DNA from: Bacilli bacterium
GTDB taxonomy: Bacteria; Bacillota_I; Bacilli_A; ML615J-28; CAG-698
Direction of reading: 5' to 3'
DNA length: 64,000 bases
Assembly: GCA_050953065.1 (NCBI GenBank)
Contig: JBMNLZ010000002.1
Location: 224,001 to 288,000, forward strand
Positions 1 through 64,000 of the stretch are shown piece by piece. The notes under the pieces were generated by a model that did no database searches, was not told the origin of the DNA, and worked only from the letters and a program-made list of their open reading frames with translations. The first letter of the stretch is position 1. Each line of letters starts with the position of its first letter. The position numbers and the translations under genes are program-made.

Positions 1-1
1 A

Positions 2-3000
2 AAAGGATTAATAATTTTAATGATGCTAATTTTAATAAATTTTAATGTTGAATTAAAAGCAGCTGGAAATGAGTTTGTAGGTCAAAGTGCTGGAATAACA
101 GAACAAGATATAAAAAATGCAATAAAAATTACAGACAAAAACATTAATTATGAAACTAATATAACGTTTATTTCGCATGGTTTACAAGGTAGCGCAGCTC
201 ACTGGAGCAATATAATGGAGATGTCTTCTGCCCTTAACAGTTATGAATTTCAATATAATCATAATTCGATTATTGAATGTTTAAGAAGGCGATGCAATGC
301 AGATGTATATAAGATAGAAGACTTTAATACAAGTTATGTAATAGAAGATAATCAAATTGTTGGTGTAACACCACATTCATTTAAACTGAGAAAACTTATA
401 GTTGACAGTGTTGAAAAAATTTATAAAGAAAATGAATATATAAATTCAATTACAAATATGAATAACCATATTGTTATAATTTATCAATCTTCTAATGAAA
501 CAAATGATAAAATCTCTGATTTTGCGTATAAAGAATTGGAATTTGCAATAAACAAAATTACCTACGATGTTATACAATTAATGGAAACGAAAGTAAAAAT
601 AAATTTAATTGGTCATAGCAGAGGGGGGATTTTAAATATGAAATATGCTATAGAATATCCTTATAATGTTGATGGTTTATTTAGTGTTGGTACCCCTTAT
701 AACGGGACTAATTTGGCTAGCATATATAATTTGTTATCAAGTGCATTTCCTTCAAATTCGGGAGATCCGTTTGGATTAACAGATTTAATAAATTCACCTG
801 GAGGAAGTGAAATTATAAGTATTAATCCTGAAAACAATCATTTAAAAACCGCTTGGTTGAATATGCATGAAGAATATTCACCAAACATCAATTTTCATGC
901 AATTGCAGGTGAAACAGGTATAACACATTTGATTAAAGAATTAATAGATATTCAAAATATGGCTGGGGGGAATGCGACCTTAAGCGAAGTGGTTAATATA
1001 TTGTTTAGTGCTTTAATTGCGCTTGAACAAACATATATTAGTAATGGAATAACGCCTAATACTGATGAGAGTTCTCCTAATAGAAAACCGTATAATTCAC
1101 AAAATTTAAATTTAGAAGAGGAGCCATTGGTTAGTACGGCCGCTTTTATTTCGAGTGCACTTTTATGTTTTGGATTAAGTATAGAGAATGAGGATTATTT
1201 AGCTCTTAGTGAATTATTAATTAACTGCCGTTATTCATTCGCTGAAGGCGAGTTATTTTTAAGATCTGATTTATTTAGTCATACTTACTCACAACAGGCC
1301 GATGGCTTTGAATTTGGACTTAATGATAATATAATTTTAGTAAATAGATACAAAAAAATATTTACAGGAAATAATTCTACATATGAAATGAAAGCAGCTA
1401 ATTCTGTAGGAGTAGTTCATAATAGTGAGACAAAAGATTTAGAAATAATTAATTATATTTTATTAAATATTAATATATCTAGAAATGACAATAAAGTAAA
1501 TACTTGCTTTATTAATAAATACAATGATTCGTGCTTGGCATTTATGGGAGTTGTAATTAATAGCACTGAAAATAATGTTCATATTTCTTTGCCCAATATA
1601 ATAACTTACGATTTATATGGGGATGGAACATATATGATTCACAACGTAAAAGGCATTTCAAGATTTTTTTCTAAGAGTTTAAATAATGACAAGGTCACTC
1701 AAATTAGTTTTGGGAATAAAATAAGCATAATTGAGCAAGGGGCTTTTAATAGCTTTGATAATGTTATAGCATTTAATGTAGATGCAACGAGCGAATATTT
1801 TTGTAGTAATTCGGGTAGTTTGTATACTAAAAATAAAAAAAGTTTAATAAAGTATTGTAATGGTTCATCTTTCACAACAGCATTTATTTTGCCGAATGAA
1901 ACCACAAATATTGAGTCTTTTGCTTTTACAAATAATAATTTTTTAACAAGTGTAGACCTTAATAATGTAACAATGGTTGGAGAAAAGTGTTTTTATAATG
2001 CTTCTAATTTAGCTAGTATTGTCGGCAATCAATTGTGCTATGCTTATGATTTTGCATTCCATTATACTGAATGGCTTGACAATATAAGTAATACTGAATC
2101 AACAAATCTAGGCAAAGTATTAATAAAGTACATTGATAACTCACAACCAAAAAAAACTAAATTAGTGGTTAATCAATATTCTTGTGTATATTCATATGCT
2201 TTTTTGAATAGTGAAAATTTAGTAGAAATAATTTTCAACACTGAAGAGTTACTTGTGAATAGATATGCATTTGTAGATAATATTTCGTTAGAAAGAGTAA
2301 TGCTTTTAGTAGAACAAGTTTTTGTAATATGTCCATATTCTTTTGTTAATAATAACAATCAGTTTACGTGTTATTATTTAGAAAATGTATATATTAATGG
2401 ATTTGCAAATTTTAATATATATAGGAATCGAGGTTCTTGTGTTCCCATATCTAGATATGATTTGAATTGTAGAAGCGATGTAAATGATTTTAATAAAAAC
2501 TTGGGAAAAGGAATGTCATTAATCTATCAATTAGATGTTGATTGTGCAAAATCATATAAAATTACATCAAGTTCTACATCAGCATTTGAAATGAAAATAT
2601 ATGATCAAAATATGAATTTGATAAATGATATTGTCGCTACAATTTCAAATGATGAATTATCTGGAATAACGACTGGTACAATTACAAATTATTTAAGCCC
2701 AGGAAAATATTTTTTGAAAATAAAGTACAATGATAGTAGCAAAAGCGGAATTATAAAAACAAATTATAAAGCTACATGGCCAGTAAAAACTTACAATGTA
2801 CATTATAGCGATGTTGAAAATAAAAATAATATTTTAAATCATCTACATAAAATTTCTAAACCAATTAGTAATATTTACAAAAACGAATTAATATACGCTA
2901 ATTGTAAAGGCACAGGTTTTTATGAAATAAAACTTACCGGAATAAAAGAAGATGGAACTGTCATTAATTTCCCAGAAAAATCTATAAAAATATATAATAG

Positions 3001-4183
3001 TGCTGATAAGACCGAATTAATGCAAAAGTTTGCACTTGAAGAAAATCCATTGTTAGCAAAAAATGCATCCAATTCTAATACTGTGTATGTATATTTGACA
3101 AAAAATACAGGGTATTATATTGATATAGAATTGTATGATAAAGATTTTGTATCATTATATCTCGACATAACTTTGGCGAATATTCAAGAAATAGATATTT
3201 TTGATTTGAATAATTTAACTTCGAATGAAAATATAAATATAACAAATGAAAGTGATAAAAAGGGAGATTATGTAAAAAAAATAAAAATAAAACAAGCATG
3301 TCAAGTAAAGTTAGAAGTAGAATATGAGGGGTATCAGCATCAAAATGTAGTCATCATTCTAATGAAAATAGAATATGATAGTTTGTCAAATGAACAAACA
3401 ATAAATTTAAAATATATTGATTATCTTAATAAAGATAAAACTACGAATAATGCGAATAGCGGTGTGATTTTAGATTTAGAACCTGGAAATTATTATATTG
3501 GATACTTTAATTTGAGTAACGGCCAAATTACTATTATGAAACTAAAAAGAATTGTTAGCAATAATATTACTAATATCAATTGTGGACTACTCCCTGATCG
3601 TAGCATCCATTTCCCATATGGAAGTCAATTGTCAATTTTAGAAAAAGATGTGCCTCCTTTATACAAAAGTTATCAAGGGACTAATATTACCGTAGGTTTT
3701 ACAAGGTTAATATACTTGGACTTGGATTATGCACAATCTGATTCTAGATTAGATTATTATTGGTATTCAAGTGACAATGCTAAAGCTACTATAACAGCAT
3801 ATGCTACTATTCTTGGAAGAACTCCTGGTAATGTTACAATAATGGCGGTTTATAAAGAAGATCCATCTATCATATTTGTGAAGGAATTTACTATACAGCC
3901 AGATTTAGATAACACACCCCTAAATATAGAAATTTATCAAACCCATTCACTAAGTGAAGATGGTCCTTATCAAATAACCTTAACAGCTCAAAATAGTCCA
4001 TATGTATTTTTGCAATATTATAATTGGAGCGTTTATGTTCCGTGCCAAGAAAATGATTTTAGTGCATGGCTTGATGCTTGGGGGAATCTTGCTACTACAG
4101 GAACAGGACTTCTTTATATAACTGGTGGATATATAATTAATCCAAGGATTAGTATTACAATTTATCTGACCTTAATAGAATGA
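2..4183 (+). CDS. Large secreted protein: alpha/beta-hydrolase (PGAP1/lipase-like) head, BspA-type LRR region and conserved C-terminal Ig-like scaffold; probably 5'-truncated by the window edge
   Basis: Frame is open from base 2 (KGLIILMMLILINFNVELKAA, the tail of a signal peptide). Motifs: SHGLQG, GHSRGG nucleophile elbow, SVGTPYNG; LRR_5-like IEQGAF, IESFAF, VGEKCF; C-terminal GFTRLIY..SRLDYYWYSS..NPR. Confidence 0.8.
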   Translation, partial: KGLIILMMLILINFNVELKAAGNEFVGQSAGITEQDIKNAIKITDKNINYETNITFISHGLQGSAAHWSNIMEMSSALNSYEFQYNHNSIIECLRRRCNADVYKIEDFNTSYVIEDNQIVGVTPHSFKLRKLIVDSVEKIYKENEYINSITNMNNHIVIIYQSSNETNDKISDFAYKELEFAINKITYDVIQLMETKVKINLIGHSRGGILNMKYAIEYPYNVDGLFSVGTPYNGTNLASIYNLLSSAFPSNSGDPFGLTDLINSPGGSEIISINPENNHLKTAWLNMHEEYSPNINFHAIAGETGITHLIKELIDIQNMAGGNATLSEVVNILFSALIALEQTYISNGITPNTDESSPNRKPYNSQNLNLEEEPLVSTAAFISSALLCFGLSIENEDYLALSELLINCRYSFAEGELFLRSDLFSHTYSQQADGFEFGLNDNIILVNRYKKIFTGNNSTYEMKAANSVGVVHNSETKDLEIINYILLNINISRNDNKVNTCFINKYNDSCLAFMGVVINSTENNVHISLPNIITYDLYGDGTYMIHNVKGISRFFSKSLNNDKVTQISFGNKISIIEQGAFNSFDNVIAFNVDATSEYFCSNSGSLYTKNKKSLIKYCNGSSFTTAFILPNETTNIESFAFTNNNFLTSVDLNNVTMVGEKCFYNASNLASIVGNQLCYAYDFAFHYTEWLDNISNTESTNLGKVLIKYIDNSQPKKTKLVVNQYSCVYSYAFLNSENLVEIIFNTEELLVNRYAFVDNISLERVMLLVEQVFVICPYSFVNNNNQFTCYYLENVYINGFANFNIYRNRGSCVPISRYDLNCRSDVNDFNKNLGKGMSLIYQLDVDCAKSYKITSSSTSAFEMKIYDQNMNLINDIVATISNDELSGITTGTITNYLSPGKYFLKIKYNDSSKSGIIKTNYKATWPVKTYNVHYSDVENKNNILNHLHKISKPISNIYKNELIYANCKGTGFYEIKLTGIKEDGTVINFPEKSIKIYNSADKTELMQKFALEENPLLAKNASNSNTVYVYLTKNTGYYIDIELYDKDFVSLYLDITLANIQEIDIFDLNNLTSNENINITNESDKKGDYVKKIKIKQACQVKLEVEYEGYQHQNVVIILMKIEYDSLSNEQTINLKYIDYLNKDKTTNNANSGVILDLEPGNYYIGYFNLSNGQITIMKLKRIVSNNITNINCGLLPDRSIHFPYGSQLSILEKDVPPLYKSYQGTNITVGFTRLIYLDLDYAQSDSRLDYYWYSSDNAKATITAYATILGRTPGNVTIMAVYKEDPSIIFVKEFTIQPDLDNTPLNIEIYQTHSLSEDGPYQITLTAQNSPYVFLQYYNWSVYVPCQENDFSAWLDAWGNLATTGTGLLYITGGYIINPRISITIYLTLIE

Positions 4184-4188
4184 TATAT

Positions 4189-11847: not shown

Positions 11848-11988
11848 AAAATGTTTGATTTAAAAAAACTTTGTTTTATGTTGAACTTATAAAATATGAT
11901 TTAACTGAATTTGATTATATAATTTATTCTTTGTAGGATTGTAAATGATGTGAGACATAACATAATAATTAAAAAAGAGGTAAGGAAA

Positions 11989-12741
11989 ATGAAGAAAGCG
12001 AGTACTAAGTTATTACGAGTATTAATTGTTTGTTTTTTATTGTTGTTGATGTCTGGGTGTCGATATCGATATGATCCTTATAAGGACAAAGTAAATGTAG
12101 TTGTTGAAACGGATTATTTTTATGTTCAGTTAATAGTAAAAAATGTAAAAGAACCAAGGGCTTGTATATTAGAATTAACTGATTTAGGGAAAGAACAAGA
12201 AATTTTAGTTATTCCAGAATATGTAGAAGGGCTTCCTGTAAGGACTATTGGTAGACAAGAATTTAGTACATTTGGATGGAGAATTATAAGTGATAATTTA
12301 AAGAAAGTTTATGTTCCTATAACTGTAACCTCCATTTTAAGTACTGCATTTTTAGATTGCACTAATTTAGAAGAACTTGTGATGTTATCAGTGCCTATTA
12401 ATTATAATATGCCTGATCTTTGGTCTACTGGTGGACAAGCAACAATTATTCTTTCTAATCCATTGCAAGAAAATAGACTTATTGCAGTCCTAAAACCAGA
12501 AAATATAACATTACCAGTAAATCTAGTTTTTTACTATAACTATTCTGATGCACCAAATTCTGGATATTATTGGTTTGATTATATAACTGGTAGTAATTTA
12601 TATGTTTTACCAAACAATCCCGAAAGAGAAGGATATACTTTTAAAGGATGGTATATAGATGAAGAATGTAGTATAGAGTGGGATAAAGTATTACCAACAT
12701 CAGAAACTGAAATACTTGAATTATATGCTTTATGGGAATAA
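11989..12741 (+). CDS. Lipoprotein with LRR_5-like segment and C-terminal InlB B-repeat (Flg_new-like) domain, copy 1
   Basis: Lipobox MSGC; LVIPEYVEGLPVRTIG; PEREGYTFKGWY...LYALW; RBS precedes ATG 11989. Confidence 0.8.
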   Translation: MKKASTKLLRVLIVCFLLLLMSGCRYRYDPYKDKVNVVVETDYFYVQLIVKNVKEPRACILELTDLGKEQEILVIPEYVEGLPVRTIGRQEFSTFGWRIISDNLKKVYVPITVTSILSTAFLDCTNLEELVMLSVPINYNMPDLWSTGGQATIILSNPLQENRLIAVLKPENITLPVNLVFYYNYSDAPNSGYYWFDYITGSNLYVLPNNPEREGYTFKGWYIDEECSIEWDKVLPTSETEILELYALWE

Positions 12742-13488
12742 AAAAATGAGTGTAAAATTATTTAAAATTTTTGTTATGATTTGTTTATTGTTGTTGATGT
12801 CTGGGTGTCGATATCGATATGATCCTTATAAGGACAAAGTAAATGTAGTTGTTGAAACGGATTATTTTTATGTTCAGTTAATAGTAAAAAATGTAAAAGA
12901 ACCAAGGGCTTGTATATTAGAATTAACTGATTTAGGGAAAGAACAAGAAATTTTAGTTATTCCAGAATATGTAGAAGGGCTTCCTGTAAGGACTATTGGT
13001 AGACAAGAATTTAGTACATTTGGATGGAGAATTATAAGTGATAATTTAAAGAAAGTTTATGTTCCTATAACTGTAACCTCCATTTTAAGTACTGCATTTT
13101 TAGATTGCACTAATTTAGAAGAACTTGTTGAATTATCAGTGCCTATTAATTATGATATTCCTGATCTTTGGTCTACTGGTGGACAAGCAACAATTATTTT
13201 TTCTAATCCATTGATGGAAAATAAAATTATTGCTCGTCAAAGATCTGGTGGAATACAAATACCAGTAAATTTAGTTTTTTACTATAACTATACTGATGCA
13301 CCAAATTCAGGATATTATTGGTTTGATTGTATAACTGGTAGTAATTTATATGTTTTACCAAACAACCCTGAAAGAGAAGGATATACTTTTAAAGGATGGT
13401 ATATAGATGAAGAATGTAGTATAGAGTGGGATGAAGTATTACCAACATCTGAGACTGAAATACTTGAATTATATGCTTTATGGGAATA
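12036..13488 (+). repeat. Tandem gene duplication (748-bp period)
   Basis: 12036-12380 equals 12784-13128 exactly by visual alignment; the 3' halves align with substitutions. Confidence 0.95.
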
Positions 13489-13489
13489 G
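12746..13489 (+). CDS. Lipoprotein, tandem paralog copy 2
   Basis: Near-identical to copy 1 at an offset of 748 bp; ATG 12746 follows the copy 1 stop by 4 nt. Confidence 0.8.
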   Translation: MSVKLFKIFVMICLLLLMSGCRYRYDPYKDKVNVVVETDYFYVQLIVKNVKEPRACILELTDLGKEQEILVIPEYVEGLPVRTIGRQEFSTFGWRIISDNLKKVYVPITVTSILSTAFLDCTNLEELVELSVPINYDIPDLWSTGGQATIIFSNPLMENKIIARQRSGGIQIPVNLVFYYNYTDAPNSGYYWFDCITGSNLYVLPNNPEREGYTFKGWYIDEECSIEWDEVLPTSETEILELYALWE

Positions 13490-13875
13490 AAGGAAAGATG
13501 TAGTAGAGAAAGCATTTGATAATATGAAGAATGATTTAGACTTTAGAAGATTAAGAATTCATAATGAAAACACGTTAAGAGGTAAAATGTTTATAGTGTT
13601 TATTGCTTTAATATTAAAAACATATTTATATAATATGGTAATACAAAGAGGAATAGTAAAAGAATATTCAATTAATGAAGTACTAAAAGAAGTACAAAAA
13701 ATATCTAGAATTGAATTTGATAAAAACAACTCATTGTTAACGGAGATATCAAGCGAGCAAAGAAAATTATTTAGATTATTAGAAATAACAGAACCAAAAG
13801 AGAAAGAATGTACCCTAATGTAGGGGGTACATTCTTTATTGTTTATACGTGTATAATTCTTATAGGGAATTTAGG
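13487..13875 (+). mobile_element. 5'-truncated IS1634-like (IS4-related DDE) element: transposase C-terminus plus right end
   Basis: RRKDVVEKAFDNMKNDL..LR..GKMFIVFIAL matches the Y-R-E-K helix of IS4-type transposases. It is followed by a hairpin at 13803-13837 and GGGAATTTAGG (13865-13875), resembling IS1634-type ends. The N-terminus is absent. Confidence 0.75.
13803..13837. terminator. Hairpin at the transposase 3' end
   Basis: aaagaatgtaccc / gggtacattcttt 13-bp stem. Confidence 0.6.
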
Positions 13876-13930
13876 TTGATAATACGATTATACATTAATT
13901 ATGGCAAATAACAATACTATTTTGAACGGT

Positions 13931-13964
13931 ATATGTTGACTGGGATATTTTTAAATGTTAAAAT
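13931..13964 (+). promoter_or_regulatory. Sigma-A promoter of the lipoprotein-subtilase operon
   Basis: TTGACT-17 nt-TAAAAT with extended -10 TG; 30/34 identical to 62358-62391. Confidence 0.75.
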
Positions 13965-13987
13965 ATTGGTGTAGGGGGTAAATAAAA

Positions 13988-14755
13988 ATGCGAAAATTAT
14001 TATTTTTTTTGATAACATTTATTTTGGGATTAAGTCTTGTAGGGTGCGACGACGAAATAAATGCGATTGAGAAAGTGAAAGTCCAAGCAAGACAAACTTA
14101 TTTGAACACAATCATTAAACCTCGGTATCCCGATGCTACAATAGCCGATGTGTCATTCAGACCTTTTCTTGGGGTTTATAGCAATAGCTTGGTAGCCATT
14201 TTCTATGGTGGACAGTATCACGGTAGTCAAATAGCAGTTGAGGTAACTGAGGAAATTGAGAATATAATTTTTGCATATTCCAGCGGATATCCAATCCTTG
14301 TTTGGAACGACGGGAAAATAAGTTCGCTAACGGCGGCATACGAGCAAGGGCTTTTAACAAAAGAAAATTTGACAACCATACACAATCTTTATTGCGATAT
14401 AGATGATGGAGTGGAGGTCGAAATGGAAATACAGTCAAGGCTAACTTATTTGAACACAATCGTTAAACCTCGGTATCCCGATGCTACAATAGCCGATGTG
14501 TCATTCAGACCGTTTCTTGGGGTTTATAACAACAGCTTGGTAGCCGTTTTTTATGGCGGGCAGTATCACGGTCCTCACATAGAACGTGAGGTAACTGAGG
14601 AAATTGAGAATATAATTTTTGCATATTCTAGCGGATATCCAATCCTTGTTTGGAACGACGGGGAAATAAGTTCGCTAACGGCGGCATACGAGCAAGGGCT
14701 TTTAACAAAAGAAAATTTGACAACTATACACAATCTTTATATAGGTAAAAAGTAA
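13988..14755 (+). CDS. Lipoprotein with two tandem copies of an unknown ~100-aa domain
   Basis: MRKLL...SLVGC lipobox; repeated TYLNTI.KPRYPDATIADV...SLTAAYEQGLLTKENLTTIHNLY. Confidence 0.85.
   Translation: MRKLLFFLITFILGLSLVGCDDEINAIEKVKVQARQTYLNTIIKPRYPDATIADVSFRPFLGVYSNSLVAIFYGGQYHGSQIAVEVTEEIENIIFAYSSGYPILVWNDGKISSLTAAYEQGLLTKENLTTIHNLYCDIDDGVEVEMEIQSRLTYLNTIVKPRYPDATIADVSFRPFLGVYNNSLVAVFYGGQYHGPHIEREVTEEIENIIFAYSSGYPILVWNDGEISSLTAAYEQGLLTKENLTTIHNLYIGKK
14095..14740 (+). repeat. Intragenic direct repeat, 298-bp units with a 348-bp period
   Basis: 14095-14392 aligns with 14443-14740 with scattered substitutions. Confidence 0.95.
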
Positions 14756-14767
14756 AAGGAGAAAATC

Positions 14768-17700
14768 ATGTTTAATACTAACAAAGTAAAGAAAGTATCG
14801 CGATTTAGTGCATTATCAATTATAATATCAATCCTAATATTGGGATTAATAGTATCATTTACTTTCATGAACTGCAATACTATCTACGTATTTGCTGCTG
14901 AAGGCGAACAAACCGTGTCGATGACAAAAGTTTACAGCGACGTGTCAATTGAAGAGGATTTTGATGGCAGTAGCATTATTGTTATTATTGACAATAGTCT
15001 AAGTGGGATAAACAAGCGCCATGATGTAAATTTTTTTGAAGGAATTGAAATAGTCGAAATCGAAGACTTAACCGTAAAAACAGAGAGTGCAAGAAGTCTC
15101 GTTGACAAGAAAACTTTCGAGCAGGTCTTGAAGATAAAGTTACCGCAAGATTGTAAAGAAAGTGTCATACGCGGTATTAAGCAATTAGAAAGCATAAACG
15201 GAATTAAGTATGCTGGACCCAATAGGTATATTGAAGTGGAGAGGAATCCTAATGACCCGTTTTTTACCCATGTTTCCGGCGGTGAGGCGAATCAATGGGG
15301 GCTTAATAGAATTCAAGCAAATTTAGCTTGGGATTTGACAACGGGCAATAATAACGTGCGTGTCGGGATAATCGATACGGGAATTGGTGATATTGTCGGC
15401 GGACAAGCTAATCATCCTGACTTAAATGCAAACTTAGTTGCAGGTGGAGATTTTGTTAACATGAACGGAACTACGCCGGGGCCGTTAAGAGCAGATACTG
15501 ATGGACACGGAACTCACGTTGCTGGAATTGTAGGAGGGGTTGGCAATAATAGTGTGGGAATCTCTGGCGTTAATTGGAACGTTTCATTAGTGCCGATGCA
15601 AGTCGCAACAGGTGATACAATCGACGCCGCGGCTTGCGTAAGAGCAATAAATTTTGCAACAAACACTTGGAATAACGAAAATAGAATTAGTATTTTGAGT
15701 ATGAGTATCGGTCGATATACTGAGTGGCCAGAAATAGAAACTGCGATTAGAGCGTACCCTGGACTTTTTGTTTGCTCCACAGGAAACAGAAAACAGAACA
15801 ATGATATCACTCACCATTATCCCTCTTTTTATGGTTCCGCTTTGCACACAAATCCGCTTACAAATATGATTTCAGTAGGCAGAAGTGACATTAACGATGA
15901 GCGTCCTACAGATTTGAATATCAATGCAAATTGGGGAGCGCAAACGATTACTCTTTTTGCACCAGGTCAAAACATCATTAGTACATACCCCGTTAGCGTG
16001 ACATCAAATTGGACTCCTGGATATCACAGAACATCAGGCAGCTCAATGGCAGCGCCTATGGTTTCGGGGGTAGCGGCTTTATTGTTATCAGTTAATGCAA
16101 ATCTTACAACTACTCAATTAAGAGCGGCAATCGTCAACAACGTGGATGTGTTGGACACTTTTGAAAACGACCCAACAAACGGACGTCAATGCGTAACAGG
16201 TGGACGGCTTAATGCATACAAGGCACTTAGTAGCGTAATTTTTACAACAAGTAACGTTAGTAATGGCATATCAATAAACGGTTTTATAAACGGATACACT
16301 ATGCCAAACAACACAGAATTAGTTTTACCAGATAGCTTTGCACCATTAGGAGATGAAGAACAACAACCTGTTGTTGCAATTGGGAATAATGCTTTTGCTA
16401 ATCAAACAAGCCTAACTGAAATCTCTATTCCTAGCAGTATTACAAGTATTGGAGCAAATGCCTTTGCTGGTTGTACTTCATTAAACAGTGTAATAAGAGA
16501 ATTTAATTATGATATTACTACCACTAATTGCTATTACTTAATAAGAGAAAATTTAAATAATAATTTTCTTGAAGTGAACGGAGAAACTGTCTCAAATACA
16601 AATGATATAGTTCCTTTGTACTTAAGTGCAGGCAATCATAGTATTAAAGTACAAGGGTCAAATATTTCAAGTGTTATGAGTGCTCCAACTTTAGAGAAAG
16701 TAGAACAGATTTTTCTAAACTCAAATCAAGATGTTAAAAGTAGCATTGAAAGTGGAAAAAATATTTTTCATTTTAATAATTTTGGTGGAAGGTTTGTTCG
16801 ATTTACTATAGAAGCAACTAGTAGTAATCCTAACAATCCAACTATTAGTTATTTAGAAAATGCAATAATAGTTAGAGACTCAAATGGTGTGATAAAAAAA
16901 TTTGAAAATTCTATTTTTTCTATAGAAGCAAGAAATGTTACTGATTCAAATACAATAACAGTTTATCTTCCTACAACTAAAACTTATTATGTAGAAGTAA
17001 ACTTTTCAACTACGGATATTTCCGAATTAACATTGACTGCTAGATTATTAGATAATGCATCTCAATTTAATTTATTTAATTTAAATGAAAATGCTAATTC
17101 TAACATTAATTTGTTTAACATTGGCACATCAAATGGTGATGAAATTAAGGTAATTAATATATTGCAATCAGGACAATTTAAATTTGTAGTTAATTGTGAT
17201 AATCGAACAACTAGTTCAAAATTTGTAATTATTAAAGAAAAGTTAGTTGATAATCAAATAGTTAGACAGGTTATAAATGTGTGGAATATGGATATGGATG
17301 AAAATGGGAATGGTGAAATAGTTGATTTAGAACCTGCTAAATATTATATGGGATATTTTAATACACCGGTAGGGGTAGATGTTACTATTCTAATCAATAG
17401 ACTTGTTACACAAAGCGGAAGTGATGTATTGGTAACCGATCCAGATTATATGACACCTTGTGGAAGTCAAATCAATATAATTGAAGCAGATAAAAACATA
17501 AAAAGTTATCGTCAAACATTTATAACAGAGGGATTTACAAGATTAGTATATTTTGATATAGATTATGCTCCTTCTATTTCTAGATTAGATTATTATTGGT
17601 ATTCAAGCAATTCAAGTGTAGCAACAGTTACCCCATATGGAACTGTTTTAGCATTGCCAGTAACAACAGCTACTACAGTAAAAATAATGGCTGTATTTAA

Positions 17701-18442
17701 AACAGATTGTTCAAAAGTTTTCATTAAGGAATTTACTATTTTAGATGATATAGGATTGTCATGTGAATATGATAATAGAGAAGAAATGGTAAATGATTTT
17801 CTAGATGATTATACAGCATTTTACAATGCTGCTAACAATACAAGTTTATCTAGAGTAACCTTACTTATTCCAGGAGATTCTGGCTATGATGCTAGTACGG
17901 CATTAGTGGCTAGATTAGATAATCAAAATGCTACTTTAGAATTATTTTATAACAACCTTGATTTATACAATAAGTGGATTTGGATTGTTGACTATACAAT
18001 GGAAATACGCCCTTCAAGTCAAACTGAGTTTCAAAAATATATAAACAATACAGCAACTGGAACAAGTACAATTGTAAAATATGAAATATGGGCTTTCTTA
18101 AGTAAAAGAGTAAAAACAACGTGGCCACAAACTAGTGACTATACAATAGATGAAAACGCAAATGGTTTTTGGAGTTTAATAAATGGTGAATCTATAACTA
18201 TAGATATTAATGTTACAATTCCAGCTGGTCAAACAGTTATGATTCCTTTAATAGATGCAGAAGTACCTATTAATATATTGCAATATTATTTGTGGTCTAC
18301 AGAAAATCCAGAATCCGTAACATTTGCAGATTGGGGAAAAGTATATATTAGTTCTTCGGCAATTGGACAAACGGTTGTACTTAATGGAAGTTATATTCTT
18401 AACCCTAGGGTAGTAGTTAAGATTACTGTACAAGTAGAATAA
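14768..18442 (+). CDS. Secreted S8 subtilisin-like serine protease with LRR_5 repeat and conserved C-terminal scaffold
   Basis: Signal peptide ending ..VFAAE; prodomain; catalytic IIDTG, HGTHVAG, GSSMAAP; IGNNAFAN..IPSSITSIGANAF; C-terminus homologous to ORF 2..4183. Confidence 0.92.
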   Translation: MFNTNKVKKVSRFSALSIIISILILGLIVSFTFMNCNTIYVFAAEGEQTVSMTKVYSDVSIEEDFDGSSIIVIIDNSLSGINKRHDVNFFEGIEIVEIEDLTVKTESARSLVDKKTFEQVLKIKLPQDCKESVIRGIKQLESINGIKYAGPNRYIEVERNPNDPFFTHVSGGEANQWGLNRIQANLAWDLTTGNNNVRVGIIDTGIGDIVGGQANHPDLNANLVAGGDFVNMNGTTPGPLRADTDGHGTHVAGIVGGVGNNSVGISGVNWNVSLVPMQVATGDTIDAAACVRAINFATNTWNNENRISILSMSIGRYTEWPEIETAIRAYPGLFVCSTGNRKQNNDITHHYPSFYGSALHTNPLTNMISVGRSDINDERPTDLNINANWGAQTITLFAPGQNIISTYPVSVTSNWTPGYHRTSGSSMAAPMVSGVAALLLSVNANLTTTQLRAAIVNNVDVLDTFENDPTNGRQCVTGGRLNAYKALSSVIFTTSNVSNGISINGFINGYTMPNNTELVLPDSFAPLGDEEQQPVVAIGNNAFANQTSLTEISIPSSITSIGANAFAGCTSLNSVIREFNYDITTTNCYYLIRENLNNNFLEVNGETVSNTNDIVPLYLSAGNHSIKVQGSNISSVMSAPTLEKVEQIFLNSNQDVKSSIESGKNIFHFNNFGGRFVRFTIEATSSNPNNPTISYLENAIIVRDSNGVIKKFENSIFSIEARNVTDSNTITVYLPTTKTYYVEVNFSTTDISELTLTARLLDNASQFNLFNLNENANSNINLFNIGTSNGDEIKVINILQSGQFKFVVNCDNRTTSSKFVIIKEKLVDNQIVRQVINVWNMDMDENGNGEIVDLEPAKYYMGYFNTPVGVDVTILINRLVTQSGSDVLVTDPDYMTPCGSQINIIEADKNIKSYRQTFITEGFTRLVYFDIDYAPSISRLDYYWYSSNSSVATVTPYGTVLALPVTTATTVKIMAVFKTDCSKVFIKEFTILDDIGLSCEYDNREEMVNDFLDDYTAFYNAANNTSLSRVTLLIPGDSGYDASTALVARLDNQNATLELFYNNLDLYNKWIWIVDYTMEIRPSSQTEFQKYINNTATGTSTIVKYEIWAFLSKRVKTTWPQTSDYTIDENANGFWSLINGESITIDINVTIPAGQTVMIPLIDAEVPINILQYYLWSTENPESVTFADWGKVYISSSAIGQTVVLNGSYILNPRVVVKITVQVE

Positions 18443-34011: not shown

Positions 34012-34021
34012 GAGGTAAAAG

Positions 34022-35083: not shown

Positions 35084-35098
35084 GGAGGGAGAGTAAAA

Positions 35099-36070: not shown

Positions 36071-36080
36071 AGGCTAGCTT

Positions 36081-37121
36081 ATGAATAATAAAAATAAAAA
36101 ATCGGATACATTTGAAGAGGGTGAAGTTTTAATTGAGGTTAAAAATTTAAAACAATATTTCTCAATTAATACTGGCTTTTTAAAAAATACTTTTTTAAAA
36201 GCAGTTGATGATGTTTCTTTTGAAATTAAAAAAGGTGAAACATTAGGCTTAGTTGGTGAATCTGGATGTGGTAAGACTACAGTTGGAAGAACTTTACTTA
36301 ATTTATATAAACCGACCTCTGGAGAAATCTTTTATAAAGGAAAGCAAATTAAAACAAAAGATGATATCAAAAAGTTCAGACAAAAAGCTGCGATGGTTTT
36401 TCAAGATCCATATTCTTCGCTTAATCCAAGAATGACTGTAGGAGATATAATTGGTGAACCACTAGATGTTCATAAATTATATGATACTAAAGAAGAAAGA
36501 AAACGCCGTATTGATGAATTGATGAGTTTAGTTGGCTTATCAAGTGAACATGCTACTAGATATGTTCATGAGTTTAGTGGTGGTCAACGTCAAAGAATAG
36601 GAATTGCTAGAGCTTTAGCAGTTAATCCTGATTTTATTGTTTGTGATGAACCAGTATCTGCTTTAGACGTTTCAATTCAAGCTCAAGTAATAAATATGTT
36701 TAAAGACTTACAAGATAAGTTAGGTTTAACGTATTTGTTTATTGCTCATGATATTCATGTGGTTGAGCATATTTCAAATAGAATTGCAGTAATGTATTTA
36801 GGAAAAATAGTAGAGGTTGCAGAAGCTGAAGAATTAACTTCTAATCCACTACATCCTTATACAGTTTCTTTGATGTCAGCAGTACCAGTACCAGATCCTA
36901 AAACTGCAAGAATTAAGAAAAGAATTATTTTACAAGGAGATGTACCAAGTCCATTAAATGTTCCAACAGGTTGTGCTTTTAGGACAAGATGTCCTAAAGC
37001 AACTGATGCATGTAGTGGAGAGTCTCCAAGTTTAAAAGAAATAAAACCTAATCATTTTGTGGCATGCTATAATATTTCTTTAAATGAAAAGCCAAATATT
37101 GACAAAAAATTAAAAAAGTGA
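36081..37121 (+). CDS. oppF: Oligopeptide ABC transporter ATPase
   Basis: [24 protein letters not shown]. Confidence 0.93.
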
Positions 37122-37127
37122 TAGAAT
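37099..37127 (+). promoter_or_regulatory. Internal promoter for oppA overlapping the oppF 3' end
   Basis: TTGACA-17 nt-TAGAAT with extended -10 TG. Confidence 0.65.
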
Positions 37128-37163
37128 TACTTGTCTATTAAAAAGGAGGAAAGACAAAAAAAT

Positions 37164-38945
37164 ATGTTTAAAAAAATTTCAATGTTTTTATTAGTATTAA
37201 TTTCTGTCCTAGCTCTATCAGCTTGTGGTAAAAAATCTGATAGACTAGTTGTATGTGTTGGTCCAAATCCGGACACAATTGACCCTGCATTAAACAGTGC
37301 TGTTGATGGTGCAACTTTAATTATCCATGCATTTACTGGATTAGTTGGATATCAACAAGATGAAAACGGTGCTTTACAGTTAGTTCCTGAACTAGCTAAA
37401 GAATTACCTGCACCTGTTGCATTAGAAGGTGGAAAAGTTAAATATGAATTTACTTTAAAAGATGACTTAAAATGGTCTGATGGAACAGCTTTAACTGCTA
37501 AAGATTTTGAATATGCATGGAAAAGAGCTGCGTCTGTTGAACTTGGAGCTGACTATAGTTACATGTTTGATGTAATTGATGGTTGGGCAGATCTATGGGC
37601 TGATGAACCAGCTGAAGGTGCTGAATTAAATGTTACTGCATCTGAGGATGGGAAAAAATTAACAGTTGTATTAACTACTGCATGTCCTTATTTCTTTGAA
37701 TTATGTGCATTCTCTACTTTTATGCCAGTTAAAGAAGAAGTTGTTGAAGCTAACCCTGAAACATGGGCAACAAAAGTAGCTACATATATTGGAAATGGCC
37801 CTTTCAAAATTACTGAATGGACAGCTGATAGTAAAATCGTTATGACTAAGAATGAATATTATCATAATGCTGATGATATTAAACTTAAAGAAATTGAATT
37901 TGCATTATCAGATGATGATACAGCAATTCTTACAAACTACAAAACTGGTGCTTATGCATTAATTGATAGCGTTCCAAATGATGAAATCGCTGCATTAAAA
38001 AAAGACTATGCTGATGAATTAGTTGTTGCTGGTCAACTTGGAACTTATTACATTAACTTTAACGTTGACTTTACAGCAACTTCAGCAACTTCATCTGATT
38101 TTTATAAAATTGGTGATGAAGAACTTTCTGAAGAAAATAAAGTTAAAGTTAGAAAAGCTTTAGGTTTATTAATTGATAGAAATTATATCGCTGAAGAAAT
38201 CGGTCAAGCTGGACAACAACCTGCTAACTCTTATGTTCCAATTGGTTTAACTGAACCAGATGGTTTAACTCAATTTGTTGCTAAGAATGGTCCTGCAGGA
38301 GATGGAAAAGGTTACTACAGCGTTGATAAAGCTGATTATCAAGCTAACTGTGCTCAAGCTGTTACATTATTAAAAGAAGCTGGCTATACTTATGATGAGG
38401 CAACTAAGAAATTTACTAACTTCCCTACATTTGAATATCTTTATAATACAAGTTCAGGACATAAAGCAATTGCTGAATATATCCAATCTGTTTATTCGGG
38501 ATATGGAATTGAAATTACTCTTGCAAATCAAGAATGGGGAACATTCTTAAATACTAGAAAAGAAGGAGACTTCGTTGTTGCTAGAAATGGTTGGTTAGGT
38601 GACTACAATGATCCTATTTCATTCCTTGATATGTGGACATCAACTAGTGGAAATAACGACTCTCAATTTGGTAAAGGTGCACATGCAACTGTTGCAATCT
38701 ATGGACCAGAGAAAAACAAAACATGGGCTGAAACATATGATGTTTTAATCGCTGAAATTAAAGCTTCATCTGATCAAGAAGTTCGTTTTGCAAAAATGCA
38801 TCAAGCAGAAAACATGATTATGGATACAGGAGCAATCACTCCAATCTATTTCTATACTGACCTTTATATGGTTAGTCCTAAATTAGAAGGATTCTTTGCT
38901 TCTCCATTAGGATATAAATTCTTCATGTATGCATCTTTAAAATAG
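37164..38945 (+). CDS. oppA: Oligopeptide-binding lipoprotein
   Basis: LSAC lipobox, TIDPA, KWSDG..LTAKDF, NGPF, WLGDYNDP; AGGAGG RBS. Confidence 0.92.
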   Translation: MFKKISMFLLVLISVLALSACGKKSDRLVVCVGPNPDTIDPALNSAVDGATLIIHAFTGLVGYQQDENGALQLVPELAKELPAPVALEGGKVKYEFTLKDDLKWSDGTALTAKDFEYAWKRAASVELGADYSYMFDVIDGWADLWADEPAEGAELNVTASEDGKKLTVVLTTACPYFFELCAFSTFMPVKEEVVEANPETWATKVATYIGNGPFKITEWTADSKIVMTKNEYYHNADDIKLKEIEFALSDDDTAILTNYKTGAYALIDSVPNDEIAALKKDYADELVVAGQLGTYYINFNVDFTATSATSSDFYKIGDEELSEENKVKVRKALGLLIDRNYIAEEIGQAGQQPANSYVPIGLTEPDGLTQFVAKNGPAGDGKGYYSVDKADYQANCAQAVTLLKEAGYTYDEATKKFTNFPTFEYLYNTSSGHKAIAEYIQSVYSGYGIEITLANQEWGTFLNTRKEGDFVVARNGWLGDYNDPISFLDMWTSTSGNNDSQFGKGAHATVAIYGPEKNKTWAETYDVLIAEIKASSDQEVRFAKMHQAENMIMDTGAITPIYFYTDLYMVSPKLEGFFASPLGYKFFMYASLK

Positions 38946-45246: not shown

Positions 45247-47694
45247 ATGAAACAAAAAAACAGAATATTTTGGGCTTTATTAATCATAATAATTTTAGGA
45301 GTAGCGGTATTTATTTATTCGTTATTTAAGGGTGAGGGCAGTTCTTTAATCTCTTATATTTCAATAAGTATTGCTTTAGTAGCTTCTTTAATTCTTAATA
45401 TTACTAATTTCAATTTGAAAAGTCAGAAGAAATTAGAATGGCTAGAAAAAAGAATGGGTTTATGGAATTCCATTTCTTTTCGTGTTCAAAAAGCAGGTGA
45501 GGTTTCATTTAATGAAATTCCGATTGCAATTTTGATTTTTGATAATGATTTTATTATTCAATGGGTTAATAAGTTTGCTAAAGAAATTTTTATGAGTCCC
45601 TTATTAGAAAGAGATATTGAAAACATTAATAAAGAATTAGCTGAAAAGTTAACTAATAAAATTAATGCTTTTGAAATAACTGTATATGGAAGAATTTTTC
45701 ATTGTAGAGTTTTATACGAATTTAATATTATTTACATGACTGATGTTACAGAAAAAATGGTTATTCAAAAACAATACGAAGAAAGAATTCTAGCACTTGG
45801 AATGATTAACTTAGATAATTTAGATGAAGCGTTTGTTTCTTTTGATACAAAAAGTAAAGCATTACACCTTAGTAATATGATTGGGCTTTTAGAAGAGTGG
45901 GCTAATAAATATGATTTTTATATTAAGGGTTATAGTGAAGAACGCTTTTTGATGGTTTTAGATAATTCTCAACTTCAAGAAATCAAAAAAAGTAAATTAG
46001 ATATTTTATCTAGTTTAAAAGAATATTGTATAAAATATAATATTAGAGTCAGTGCTAGTATTGGTATAGCGTGTAAGGATATTGATTCAAGTTCTCTTGC
46101 TGATTTAGCATTAGAACAATTAAATCTAGCAATCTCACGTGGTGGAGATCAAGCAGCGATTTTAGAAAATGATGAAGTAAAATATTATGGTGCTTTAATT
46201 GAAGGCTTTGAAACAATCACGCCACCTTATATTAGAATGAAAGCAGAAGAGTTAAAAGACTTGATGCTTGAAGCATCAAATGTTGTAATTCTTTCTCATA
46301 CTAATATGGATGTAGATGCTTTTGCATCATCCTTAGCAGTTCAAAAGATTGCAATGTCTTTAAATAAACCTTCAAAAATAGTTTTTGAAGAAAATTTAGT
46401 TGATGATACTGTTAAGAATATTTATGAGAATATAAAGCTTTCACATATTAATATTTTTAATTATTTAGTTTCAAGAAAAGAAGCTTTAGCATTAATGGAT
46501 ACATCAACTCTTTTAGTAATAGTTGATTGTCAATATGAGAATATTTTAATGGATGCTAAAGTATATAAAAAAGCTCATAAGATTGCGATAATTGATCATC
46601 ACAGAAGAAATACAAATGCTATTGATAATCAAATATATTCATATATTCAAACATCATCATCATCAAGTGTGGAACTTGTTATTGAGATGATTGGTTTCTT
46701 AGATCCAAGTAAAATTGAGATTTCTCCAATTGAGGCTACTTGGATGCTAATGGGAATTGTCATTGATACTAATTCGTTTACTTATAGAACTTCTCATAGA
46801 ACATTTAATGTACTTGCTACATTAAATAAAATGGGTGCTGATATGGTACTTGCTAAGAGATACTTAAGAGAAGAATATGAATACTTTACTAAAAAAACTG
46901 CATTAATAAAAGATGCATCAATTGTTGCTGATGAGTTTGTTGTAGCAGTTGGAGAAGATGAAATTTACCAACGTAATTTTCTAGCAAAAGTTGCTGATGA
47001 TTTAATAGATATTGATAAGATAAAAGCAGCTTTTTGTATTGGAAAGATTAGTGCTACTGAAATTGGAATAAGTGCCAGAAGCTTAGAAGAATTTAATGTT
47101 CAAGTCTTTATGGAAGAATTAGGTGGTGGTGGGCATTATAATAATGCTGCTGCGCAATTATCTAATTATACGTTAGAAGAAGTTAAAGAATTGTTAATTA
47201 AAAAATTATCTAAAATTAAGGAAGAAGGTAAAAATAGTATGAAGATAATTCTTACAAAAGATGTAAAAGGAAAAGGAAAAGCTAATGATATCATTAATGT
47301 TCCAACTGGACATGCCAATTTCTTAATTAAAAACAATCAAGCAATTGAGGCTACAGTTGATAATATTAAACAATTAGAGTTAAGAAATTTAGAAAACAAA
47401 ATGGCCGAACAAAAACATCTTGAAGAAATGCAAGAGTTAAAAAAACAACTTGAAACTTTAAGTATTAAAGTTGCAGTTAGAGTTGGTCAAAACGGTAAAC
47501 TATTTGGAAGTATTACAAACAAACAAATTGTAGAAGAATTTAAAAAACAACATAATATTGAACTTGAAAAAAGAAAAGTTTTATATGATAAAGATATTGA
47601 ATCTTTAGGAACTTACTCAATTCCAATTCAGCTTCATAAAGATGTACTAGCTAATATTAAAGTTCATGTAGTGGAGATGACGAAAAATGAATGA
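45247..47694 (+). CDS. gdpP: GdpP-type c-di-AMP phosphodiesterase (2 TM-PAS-degenerate GGDEF-DHH-DHHA1) fused in frame to ribosomal protein L9
   Basis: RGGDQ, DVDA, IDHH, VIDT, GGGGH, followed without a stop by [14 protein letters not shown]. Confidence 0.9.
47239..47694 (+). CDS. rplI: 50S ribosomal protein L9 moiety (possible internal start)
   Basis: [36 protein letters not shown]; GAAGG upstream of ATG 47239. Confidence 0.9.
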
Positions 47695-58422: not shown

Positions 58423-58423
58423 A

Positions 58424-62391: not shown

Positions 62392-62632
62392 TCTTGTGAG
62401 CAATTTAAGGAAGAGGGGGTGAATGTTGTATGATTAAAATAATTTGAATTTTTGATAATGCTATGGTCAATTCATAAAATTGTATTTGTTAGTAAAATTG
62501 TAAGTAGTAAGGATAATAGTTTGTAACGTAATTAAATATATTTAGTTATGATAATTAATTTGAATACTAATATTGGTTTATTATAATTAAAAATATACAA
62601 ATAATTTATAATTGTAAGAGAGGTAAGTGAAA

Positions 62633-63346
62633 ATGAGAAAATTATGTATTTTAATTATTATACTATTAAGTAATTTTAGTCTTGTAGGTTGTAGAAAACC
62701 GATAAAAGAGTATAGAGATGAAAATTTTATTTATGATTATAGGTCCTATATGAATGAAGATTGGATTTATTTAAAAGCTCTAACAAAAGAAGGAAAAGAA
62801 AAAGAATATCTTGTTGTACCAAATAAATATAACGGATATCCAGTTAGATTAGAGGGGTATGGAATACTTCAAGACCAATTAGATATAAGAAGTGATAAAC
62901 TTATAAAAATTTATATATCTAATGAAATAAAAAATTTAGCCAATTTTTATACAGGAGATGATGTAAAAATAATTTGTATTTCTAATAATATATTGAGTTT
63001 TACAGACAATAATAAAAATTATGTATCATTAAAGTTTTATGAAGAGTTAAATGAAAAAGGAAAAATAAAATCTAATAAAATTTATCCAGCTAATTTGAGC
63101 TATCAATATAATTATGAAGATGCTCCGAATGATGGATATTATTGGCTTGATGATTATGATAATGAAAATATTGTTTTTATTCCCCAAGATCCAGTTAGAA
63201 TAGGATATATATTTGGTGGTTGGTATAAAGAAGAAGAATGTATAAACAAATGGGATTTTGGAGACGATATTATTCCAGCAAAGGAATATGATGATAAAAA
63301 TAAGTATATTATTAACGAAACAATTTTGTATGCAAAATGGATATAG
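62633..63346 (+). CDS. Lipoprotein with InlB B-repeat, same family as 11989 and 12746
   Basis: MRKL..SLVGC; LT.EGKEKE.LV.P, YNY.DAPN.GYYW.D, P.R.GY.F.GWY.EEEC...WD, LYAKW. Confidence 0.85.
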   Translation: MRKLCILIIILLSNFSLVGCRKPIKEYRDENFIYDYRSYMNEDWIYLKALTKEGKEKEYLVVPNKYNGYPVRLEGYGILQDQLDIRSDKLIKIYISNEIKNLANFYTGDDVKIICISNNILSFTDNNKNYVSLKFYEELNEKGKIKSNKIYPANLSYQYNYEDAPNDGYYWLDDYDNENIVFIPQDPVRIGYIFGGWYKEEECINKWDFGDDIIPAKEYDDKNKYIINETILYAKWI

Positions 63347-63358
63347 GGGGAGAAATAA

Positions 63359-64000
63359 ATGTTAAAAAATAAAATTTTAAAATTGTGTTTTAGTTTATTA
63401 TTGTTATTAGTTATAGTGTTTGGCTTTTCAAATATAGTTATATTTGCAGCAGAAAATGGAAGCGATGATTTCGTTGGGTATTCATCTTTATTAAGTAGGG
63501 ATGAATTGCAAGAAGAAACAACAACAACGTATTTTACAAATATTAACTACGAGGAAAATGATTTTGATTATACAAATACAAATATACAAGTTGATGATTC
63601 AGAACCGTTGTTAACAGTGCTTGTTCACGGTTATGGTAGTAATGCAAGTGTTTGGAGTAATAATTTTGAATTTTTTAGTGAAGAAGATTTACGGTTAGAA
63701 AAGAAAGATGAAAAATTTACTTACGATTCAGACTCATTAATTGAAAGACTTAGAAATATAACGGAAGCTAATATATATTGTGCAGAAATGATGACATCCA
63801 GTTCTTTTGTATTATATAAATTACCTGAGTTATCAGATAATTTATTAGCTGTCCAAGATTCTTTTAGTTTAAATGGAAGTATTACGAACGATGAATTAGA
63901 TTTAATAGATTATAAAAATAATGGTGAGATAATTAAACAAATTAACGATATATCAAAACATTCTGTAGTTATTTTTAAATCAAAAAATTCAAGGGCATCA
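63359..64000 (+). CDS. Secreted alpha/beta-hydrolase-like protein, paralog of ORF 2..4183 (3'-partial; not in the supplied ORF track)
   Basis: Own translation: MLKNKILKLCF..IVIFAAENGSDDFVG..NINYE..LVHGYGSNASVWSN..YDSDSLIERLR..ANIY..H.V.IF; open to the window end. Confidence 0.8.
   Translation, partial: MLKNKILKLCFSLLLLLVIVFGFSNIVIFAAENGSDDFVGYSSLLSRDELQEETTTTYFTNINYEENDFDYTNTNIQVDDSEPLLTVLVHGYGSNASVWSNNFEFFSEEDLRLEKKDEKFTYDSDSLIERLRNITEANIYCAEMMTSSSFVLYKLPELSDNLLAVQDSFSLNGSITNDELDLIDYKNNGEIIKQINDISKHSVVIFKSKNSRAS

Follow-up and report, generated by a model that had tools for sequence, protein, structure and literature searches.

Why are large secreted hydrolases of a Bacilli bacterium preceded by small lipoprotein genes that end within a few nucleotides of their start codons? 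The question is raised by a window of 64,000 nucleotides (nt; G000:C2:224001-288000, the whole stretch of DNA analysed here) from a genome that probably belongs to the order ML615J-28, under which the available part of PMC10868615 lists the families CAG-698 and CAG-313. The genome comprises 1.55 Mb in 3 contigs, is 93.9% complete and was translated with code 11; the window is AT-rich, with a guanine + cytosine (GC) content of 24-34% in 4-kb bins. A sequence-only reading had placed three long open reading frames (ORFs) at 2..4183, 14768..18442 and 63359 to the window end, where we find them too, and had proposed that they form a polymorphic effector/immunity system with the adjacent lipoproteins. 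Our analysis leads to a different answer, which we regard as probable by a modest measure, namely a lineage-specific system of cassettes that would each combine a secreted hydrolase with its membrane-anchored cognate inhibitor, in the manner of the potempins, the peptidase-inhibiting lipoproteins of Tannerella forsythia.

Three coupled lipoprotein/hydrolase loci

At locus 2, module hydrolase 2 (14768..18442, plus strand; 1224 aa) comprises a Sec signal, a propeptide-like region, an S8 domain, LRR_5 leucine-rich repeats (LRRs), a C-terminal module shared with other enzymes (C-module, 16802..17752), an inserted domain and a tail. Pfam matched Peptidase_S8 (PF00082, E 5.8e-42) plus LRR_5, and membership is borne out by the Asp/His/Ser triad and the oxyanion Asn (D203, H247, N340 and S426): in an alignment with 10 relatives, H247, N340 and S426 are invariant and D203 is kept, with Glu in two. 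The gene upstream (13988..14755, plus strand) encodes a lipoprotein with a lipobox and two tandem repeats of ~115 aa, the candidate S8 inhibitor. Read directly, the junction consists of a TAA stop codon (14753-14755), a 12-nt spacer with AAGGAG and an ATG at 14768.

Module hydrolase 1 of locus 1 (1..4183, plus strand; ORF in the window 2..4183) starts with an ATG at G000:C2:223981, 20 nt before the window, and carries a Sec signal, a lipase-like head with the motif GHSRG, LRR_5, the C-module and a tail. Pfam returned weak alpha/beta-hydrolase matches (DUF676, E 1.9e-4, and Abhydrolase_1), LRR_5 and a weak Big_2, and among solved structures the nucleophile elbow resembles that of family I.1/I.2 lipases (E 7e-4 to 4e-3). 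Its partner, a 358-aa lipoprotein encoded outside the window (G000:C2:222908-223984), overlaps it through an ATGA stop/start; atlas matches below 0.9 and beta-propeller-like structure rows (template-modelling score 0.38-0.59) are leads only.

At locus 3, the window holds the 5' end (63359..64000, plus strand) of module hydrolase 3, whose full gene spans G000:C2:287359-292842 and encodes 1827 aa with a lipase-like head (AHSRG; Abhydrolase_1/PGAP1-like), LRR_5 in 3 stretches, Flg_new repeats, a Gly-rich region, Big_2 and the C-module. Its partner (62627..63346, plus strand) is an InlB-B (Flg_new) lipoprotein of upstream family U2, with a lipobox, a Pfam match at E 3.7e-10 and a match to InlB in the PDB at E 5.8e-4. 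The sequence-only reading had called it an LRR/InlB-B lipoprotein, of which the InlB B-repeat stands, whereas Pfam gave no match for the LRR part at E<=0.01. The junction, again read directly, comprises a TAG (63344-63346), a 12-nt spacer with GGGGAG and the ATG at 63359. The heads of hydrolases 1 and 3 are 27% identical over 520 aa (E 1.4e-29), and hydrolases 1 and 2 share their C-terminal region (36% identity over 333 aa, E 9e-48). The association of InlB-B lipoproteins with hydrolase heads, noted earlier, fails at locus 1, where the partner is unrelated to the InlB-B type (E 1.7). As a separate observation, hydrolase 3 ends within Big_2, and a 123-aa ORF in another frame (L002:6840-7213, G000:C2:292840-293216) carries Big_2 (E 3.1e-5), a pattern that suggests a frameshift, whether genuine or introduced by the assembly.

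All three loci are coupled lipoprotein/enzyme pairs, with gaps between the two genes of -4, 12 and 12 nt at loci 1, 2 and 3, respectively. Genome-wide, a small lipoprotein gene ends <=50 nt upstream on the same strand in 25 of 1331 ORFs, compared with 3/3 module genes, of which the genome list shows two because the lipobox heuristic classes the S8 gene itself as a lipoprotein; among the other large secreted non-lipoproteins in the list, the count is 1/44. The sole other pairing of a lipoprotein with a large protein (C2:484315/484720) was set aside as apparently one lipoprotein gene broken by a frameshift: a 131-aa lipoprotein ORF with an InlB-B-like end is followed after 9 nt by a 674-aa ORF without a signal peptide (G000:C2:484315-486744).

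Contigs from RNA libraries (4 runs from 3 studies, labelled sludge and anaerobic digester) match parts of 13988..14755 and the S8 gene at >=99% identity. None spans the 14755/14768 junction and DNA carry-over is possible, so co-transcription is not deduced from them. The contigs matching 13900..17000 suggest that the source organism may inhabit sludge or anaerobic digesters.

A constant module with variable heads and partners

A profile of the shared C-terminal module (322 positions) was searched against 106 genomes of the order, a survey that the sequence-only reading had proposed and that revealed many head types on one module. The module is present in 92 of the 106 genomes, with many full-length matches in proteins of 540-2000 aa, and a search of 1.84 billion representative proteins matched 260 clusters when the cut-off was E<=1e-30, a number that rises to 502 at E<=1e-10. 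Informative names for these proteins were found in none of the sources checked. A species-level genome scan returned 73 module loci, all in metagenome-assembled genomes (MAGs), many from animal or human guts, under titles such as Bacilli, Mollicutes, Tenericutes, Coprobacillus sp. CAG:698, Staphylococcus sp. CAG:324 and similar.

The C-module, predicted with a mean local distance difference test score (pLDDT) of 91.6, is modelled as a pair of beta-sandwiches followed by an Ig-like domain of the Big_2 type. For residues ~85-202, the second sandwich, the fold matches are to the C-terminal domain of C. perfringens enterotoxin (Z 9.0-9.5, root-mean-square deviation 3.4-3.6 Å, 105-115 of ~120 residues), the collagen-binding domain of ColG (Z 7.8) and the PPC domain of 5sv5 (Foldseek E 9.4e-4), although the Pfam PPC family itself had no match in module enzymes at E<=0.01; residues 203-317 match Big_2 of LigA (Z 9.3). 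These domains are of the binding type found at the C-termini of secreted peptidases and do not make a recognised trafficking signal; the most likely task of the module is to attach to a substrate or surface, not to direct export. A constant trafficking region, which the sequence-only reading named as a feature of polymorphic toxin systems, is not supported here, the fold matches being to binding-type beta-sandwich and Ig-like domains and to no known trafficking domain.

Pfam head types in the order include S8, Trypsin/Trypsin_2, Peptidase_M64, Peptidase_C92 and Abhydrolase. Head classes were defined by BLAST of the first 400 residues from 80 fetched loci around full-length matches plus the 3 genes described above. 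The largest, H1 (n=15), is metzincin-like, an initial atlas lead to M10/astacin (0.87) being retained solely because the zinc motif HExxHxxGxxD was then found in 15/15 members. It is followed by H2 (S8, n=10), H3 (unknown, n=10), H4 (lipase-like, n=8), H5 (trypsin-like, n=6), H6 (unknown, n=5), H7 (mixed, with one Peptidase_C92, n=5) and H9 (Peptidase_M64, n=2); the remaining classes have few members each, H8 and H10 with HExxH. A wider sample of 45 representatives contained 18 S8, 1 M64 and 1 trypsin-like head, as well as 23 proteins with LRR_5, and most module enzymes carry BspA-type LRRs. In the S8 enzyme of the window, a stretch of ~150 aa (residues ~990-1140) recurs with 38-56% identity in a number of giant surface proteins encoded elsewhere in the genome (such as C2:446421-448493 and C3:107144-114631), surface-protein domains being widely shuffled in this genome.

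Pairing was assessed on 83 entries (the 80 fetched loci and the 3 genes of this genome), with 12 whose N-terminus was unseen or split set apart. The N-terminus is visible in 64 headed genes: in 43 of them a lipoprotein gene lies <=150 nt upstream, in 15 the upstream gene is of another kind, and in 6 the locus shows none. The recurring cassette first noticed in the window, a small lipoprotein plus a variable head on a constant C-terminal region, is supported. Headless module genes have a lipoprotein gene upstream in 0/7 cases, which indicates that the partner goes with the head and not with the constant region. These headless members of ~725 aa (L069, L071, L072, L074, L077, L078 and L080) consist of a signal peptide, the C-module and then ~350 residues, and database proteins of the same length class (P0042-P0044 and others) carry no precomputed Pfam family.

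The upstream proteins are highly diverse, with 35 sequence clusters among 65 proteins, at least 25 lipoprotein sequence families in the 80 loci and partner sizes of 113-376 aa; 10 upstream lipoproteins of relatives that were scanned gave no significant Pfam family. Their families nonetheless covary with the heads: across 47 ortholog groups, 24 of the 29 pairs of groups sharing an upstream family also share a head class, compared with a permutation mean of 3.8 and with 0/10000 shuffles reaching 24. Family U2 (InlB-B type) is found only upstream of lipase-like heads (5/5 members). A hidden Markov model of the 13988..14755 domain (P0004) detects it in 5 upstream proteins, of which 4 precede S8 heads, and in relatives the domain recurs before three S8 heads and one metzincin-like head; of 19 other loci with this domain, 3 have an S8 gene immediately after it or in fusion with it. 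The claim that the lipoprotein family differs with the head type is thus sustained as a significant association and not as a strict rule, in that family U1 spans three head classes and the partner at locus 1 is unrelated. In L006 (G024:C4:36765-40154), a domain like that of 13988..14755 lies between the signal peptide and the S8 domain, the usual propeptide position, within a single ORF.

Cassette exchange at the S8 locus

The history of locus 2 is suggested by comparison with the congener G084, in which a U2 lipoprotein gene abuts a lipase-head gene whose 3' 2 kb are 72% identical to 16427..18419 of the window. Homology resumes upstream of the S8 cassette, where two orphan InlB-B (Flg_new) lipoproteins of family U2 (11950..12741 and its tandem duplicate 12716..13489, both plus strand) show 73% and 72% nucleotide identity, respectively, to the G084 lipoprotein. 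Between these homologous blocks the two genomes are unrelated, G084 having 2.1 kb of hydrolase head and the window a transposase fragment, the lipoprotein and the S8 head (13511..16426). The segment taken as acquired (13950..16426, plus strand; lipoprotein and S8 head) has a GC content of 34-46% versus 24-31% in its flanks. By gene, the values are 38.7% for the lipoprotein, 39.9% for the S8 head and 28.8% for the 3' part of the S8 gene, against a genome gene mean of 29.3% (standard deviation 5.3).

Taken together, the homology breakpoints and the GC step show that lipoprotein and S8 head were replaced together, entering as one cassette. A C-terminal fragment of a DDE transposase (13431..13823, plus strand; DDE_Tnp_1 at E 0.0015, below the Pfam cut-off), of which the genome holds no full-length copy, marks the left edge of the replaced segment and separates the orphans from the cassette. 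Joint replacement would have stranded the two orphans, which are best read as left-behind partners of the displaced lipase head. Of the earlier description of orphan InlB-B lipoproteins, the number two stands, as near-identical tandem copies; they are not remote, lying just upstream of the S8 cassette. Treating the G084 locus and the S8 locus as orthologous sites was rejected because the flanks of the former are not homologous to the window, its right flank resembling a PadR-like gene near locus 3; our claim is one of mosaic replacement rather than of an exchange at an orthologous site.

Conserved sequence also frames the lipoproteins of relatives, where one signal peptide is common to 8-9 unrelated mature families. 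Cross-family lipoprotein pairs with >=60% signal-peptide identity make up 8%, compared with 0.4% among the lipoproteins of this genome, and the DNA of signal peptide plus ribosome-binding site (RBS) gave 7 strong matches (E<=1.5e-16), spread over three genomes and each located at a lipoprotein gene that precedes a module enzyme; the signal peptides of the three lipoproteins in this genome show merely moderate likeness. Cassette exchange would be possible between handles that are conserved on the 5' and 3' sides while the part between them varies.

Proposed inhibition, its rivals and the biology of the family

The most direct indication of what the lipoproteins may do comes from the S8 pair. 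The model of lipoprotein 13988..14755 (pLDDT 86) contains two repeats, each a helix on a six-stranded sheet; a Foldseek search against the PDB gave no match at E<=0.001, and a profile search against PDB sequences returned chance-level rows only, so that these searches revealed neither a similar fold nor a similar complex. A complex of the S8 catalytic domain (residues 160-500) with the mature lipoprotein was then modelled and scored 0.69 (runs 0.58, 0.69 and 0.79), whereas the best of 3 controls scored 0.01; the mark applied to this score is reached by 58/80 solved complexes and 2/110 mismatched pairs, counts that hold only approximately because the alignments were our own. Contacts are shared between runs to >=84%, and the pLDDT of the partner is >=80. 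On the S8 side, the interface comprises residues 203-204, 247-248, 313-320, 337-342 and 422-427 and includes D203, H247, N340 and S426; on the lipoprotein side, it comprises residues 191-201, a loop in repeat 2 with a conserved FYGGQYHG stem and variable residues after it (mean entropy 1.93 versus 1.36 elsewhere). In the model, this loop lies substrate-like in the active-site cleft, which makes a self-protective, immunity-like role plausible, and the lipoprotein would most likely be the cognate inhibitor of its enzyme.

The host offers a context for such a role. In the genome, Transpeptidase, FtsW/RodA, MraY and Sortase had 0 matches and the Mur-ligase domain one, so the earlier supposition of a probably wall-less lineage is supported for this genome as to the missing peptidoglycan machinery. 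A single exposed membrane of proteins and lipids with no wall can be attacked by the proteases and lipases that the cell itself makes. In the mechanism that we propose, enzymes with a variable N-terminal catalytic head, mostly BspA-type LRRs and the constant C-module would be secreted through Sec. The small, highly diverse lipoprotein encoded upstream, translationally coupled and matched to the head, would stay on the membrane and shield the cell's own surface until the enzyme has diffused away, a shielding that a cell without peptidoglycan and with more than 100 exposed lipoproteins would need. Lipoprotein and head would move as one cassette by recombination between conserved flanks, namely the lipoprotein RBS and signal peptide on the 5' side (in relatives) and the LRR and C-module on the 3' side. 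From the S8 pair, we infer that inhibition and its protective purpose may extend to the lipase-like heads.

Among known systems, lipases of the Tle type, delivered by the type VI secretion system (T6SS), are countered by Tli lipoprotein immunity proteins, and lipases have lipoprotein partners here too. By analogy, the closest known system is nevertheless that of the KLIKK peptidases and their potempins, and not Tle/Tli; the present system appears to work like it without being a member. As described in the available parts of PMC9890683 and PMC4404884, the six peptidases of T. forsythia differ in class yet have a C-terminal domain in common, and each is encoded directly downstream of a small lipoprotein ORF with an overlap or a few bp between them. 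According to the same parts of PMC9890683 and PMC4404884, the potempins are 4-14% identical to one another with signal peptides 65% identical, orphan small lipoproteins exist, and potempins inhibit the linked peptidase via active-site loops, thereby protecting the cell's own surface, PotC being a standard-mechanism subtilase inhibitor; the authors call the system unique to one oral pathogen. Likewise here, different catalytic classes share one C-terminal region (by analogy, the modules themselves differing), the lipoprotein ORF lies immediately upstream with an ATGA overlap or a 12-nt spacer, unrelated mature lipoproteins carry conserved signal peptides (in relatives), orphan small lipoproteins are found, and in the S8 pair a loop is predicted in the active site.

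There are also differences. The C-terminus consists here of beta-sandwiches and Big_2 instead of the C-terminal domain of the type IX secretion system, and the enzymes end not in KLIKK but in other residues after a Big_2-type tail; the lipoprotein has a helix plus six-stranded sheet, twice, rather than an oligonucleotide/oligosaccharide-binding (OB) fold or an eight-stranded barrel; and the host is a peptidoglycan-less Bacilli with one membrane rather than a diderm. The family is also far larger (the 260 clusters given above) and includes lipase-like heads and BspA-type LRRs, some lipoproteins have tandem domains, and cassette exchange is documented. The lipoprotein had no sequence match to any solved chain, and no potempin occurred among its fold matches, an absence that by itself decides nothing. 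The literature matches listed, with supplementary files outside their scope, include no potempin or KLIKK work on Bacilli; no work on ML615J-28 lipoproteins with proteases was found, nor, by titles and abstract openings, a like lipoprotein-inhibitor/subtilase system in Mollicutes. The Mycoplasma AAA-ATPase/subtilisin-like toxin-antitoxin of PMC8562856, in which a neighbouring gene encodes the factor that neutralises an S8 protease, resembles the present pair in its S8 protease, adjacent candidate neutraliser gene and wall-less lineage; it was set aside as a match, being cytoplasmic, with an AAA-ATPase antitoxin and, in the available part of PMC8562856, no signal peptides, lipoprotein or shared C-module. 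What would be new, by this analogy, is a non-homologous counterpart of the potempins across a whole order of peptidoglycan-less bacteria.

The strongest rival, unlikely though it seems to us, holds that the lipoproteins are dedicated anchors or maturation factors, which hold or fold the enzyme at the membrane without inhibiting it. Precedents are PrtM, a lipoprotein of the PrsA-type peptidyl-prolyl isomerase (PPIase) family that serves the S8 proteinase PrtP of Lactococcus, and Lif, the helical membrane foldase of Pseudomonas and Burkholderia lipases; as in PrtP/PrtM and lipase/Lif, a membrane-bound partner is encoded here beside a large secreted S8 enzyme or lipase. In favour of this rival, no anchor is present in the enzymes, whose Sec signals look cleavable, the genome has no sortase, and the tight translational coupling suits a stoichiometric helper equally. 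The lipase-like nucleophile elbow is nearest to solved lipases that include, as a further entry, 2es4, which we take to be a lipase-foldase complex. The domain at the propeptide position in L006 is also compatible with such a helper, propeptides serving as chaperones and inhibitors both. However, the partners here belong to many unrelated families, and in the 3 partners, the 2 orphans and 10 lipoproteins of relatives no PPIase or lipase-chaperone Pfam family was detected at E<=0.01. The diversity of the upstream proteins, in 35 clusters among 65, fits specific inhibitors better than general foldases, and a loop modelled on the catalytic triad and the oxyanion Asn would block activity and not merely tether the enzyme. 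The helper explanation remains real mainly for the lipase-like heads.

We consider it improbable, to a greater degree, that the system is a Sec-exported polymorphic toxin/immunity system, in which the heads would be weapons against microbes or host membranes and the lipoproteins would protect kin. Here too, a constant region is combined with swappable catalytic domains of many types, an adjacent cognate partner, joint replacement of lipoprotein and head and displaced orphans; the conserved flanks could act as recombination handles, and the modelled active-site binding is what an immunity protein would be expected to do. Polymorphic toxins have an N-terminal trafficking region, a C-terminal variable toxin and an immunity gene downstream, whereas the polarity and gene order are opposite here, with the variable head N-terminal, the constant, binding-like part C-terminal and the partner gene upstream. 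Only a Sec signal was seen, with no type V, VI or VII secretion context and no dedicated delivery system evident. The heads are ordinary secreted degradative enzymes with adhesin-type LRRs and binding domains of the collagenase/enterotoxin C-terminal type, the small genome and the oligopeptide (Opp) importer in the window suit nutrient scavenging, and there are just two orphans, both accounted for by a single replacement. Cassette exchange and plausible self-protection are hence what survives of the effector/immunity proposal, its layout being reversed. Finally, that the adjacency is devoid of functional meaning, lipoprotein genes being abundant (a lipobox in 148/1331 ORFs, ~11%) and clustering with the many large surface-protein genes that lie in arrays, is very improbable in view of the 25/1331 versus 3/3 and 43/64 versus 0/7 counts, the translational coupling, the co-transfer and a complex model that passed its mark.

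Several observations weigh against the hydrolase/inhibitor reading itself. The case for inhibition comes from one structure prediction of one pair, whose score expresses model confidence and is not a measurement, and lipoprotein 13988..14755 resembles cystatin-type inhibitors only weakly (Z 3.3-5.0), short of what the tool treats as meaningful; the many such inhibitors in the top 50 of its match list are at Z 3.3-4.5. The S8 enzyme's own propeptide-like region could give latency without a second inhibitor, and for the lipase-like heads, the solved lipases that come nearest share their operon with Lif, which acts as a foldase and not as an inhibitor. The partners are larger than potempins (98-132 aa). 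Pairing is not universal, as the 15/64 headed genes with a non-lipoprotein upstream and the 6/64 with no gene in the locus attest; the U3 family (392-428 aa, no lipobox), of which the one member scanned (L087) had no Pfam family at E<=0.01, precedes five metzincin-motif enzymes (L083, L087, L091, L097 and L111). Covariation is likewise imperfect, in that U1 sits with S8 (three), trypsin-like (five) and unknown (one) heads, and the permutation p-value makes the association look stronger than it is because the genomes compared are akin. For the 358-aa partner at locus 1, a single-protein query found no relative in the other 105 genomes.

Beyond the three loci, the window encodes, between the protease loci, an Opp-type oligopeptide ABC importer (33085..38945, plus strand) with two permeases, two ATPases and a family-5 binding lipoprotein, a position that fits peptide scavenging. 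Among the many giant surface proteins of this genome is a lipoprotein of 1145 aa, encoded at 25695..29132 (plus strand), in which seven Big_2 domains are combined with a Peptidase_C39-like domain at the C-terminus. An 815-aa ORF (45247..47694, plus strand) fuses a GdpP-type c-di-AMP phosphodiesterase (PAS, GGDEF-like, DHH and DHHA1) to a complete ribosomal protein L9, with the N- and C-terminal domains of the latter in the same frame.

In its broadest form, our proposal is that the module proteins constitute a large unnamed family of Sec-dependent, recombining hydrolase/inhibitor cassettes, with inhibitors of a new fold, as a convergent and larger counterpart of the potempins; we advance this tentatively, as an attractive possibility that falls somewhat short of being likely. 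If true, a surface-anchored inhibitor for each secreted hydrolase would be a general answer to self-digestion. The cassettes would then comprise protease-inhibitor families not described before, dozens of them, and serve as a source of inhibitor folds yet to be characterised; they might also include lipoproteins that inhibit secreted lipases, the first such outside T6SS immunity. The proposal would account for many of the genes annotated as "hypothetical lipoprotein" in gut and digester MAGs, and the exchange of cassettes between conserved handles would offer a concrete route for diversifying extracellular enzymes.

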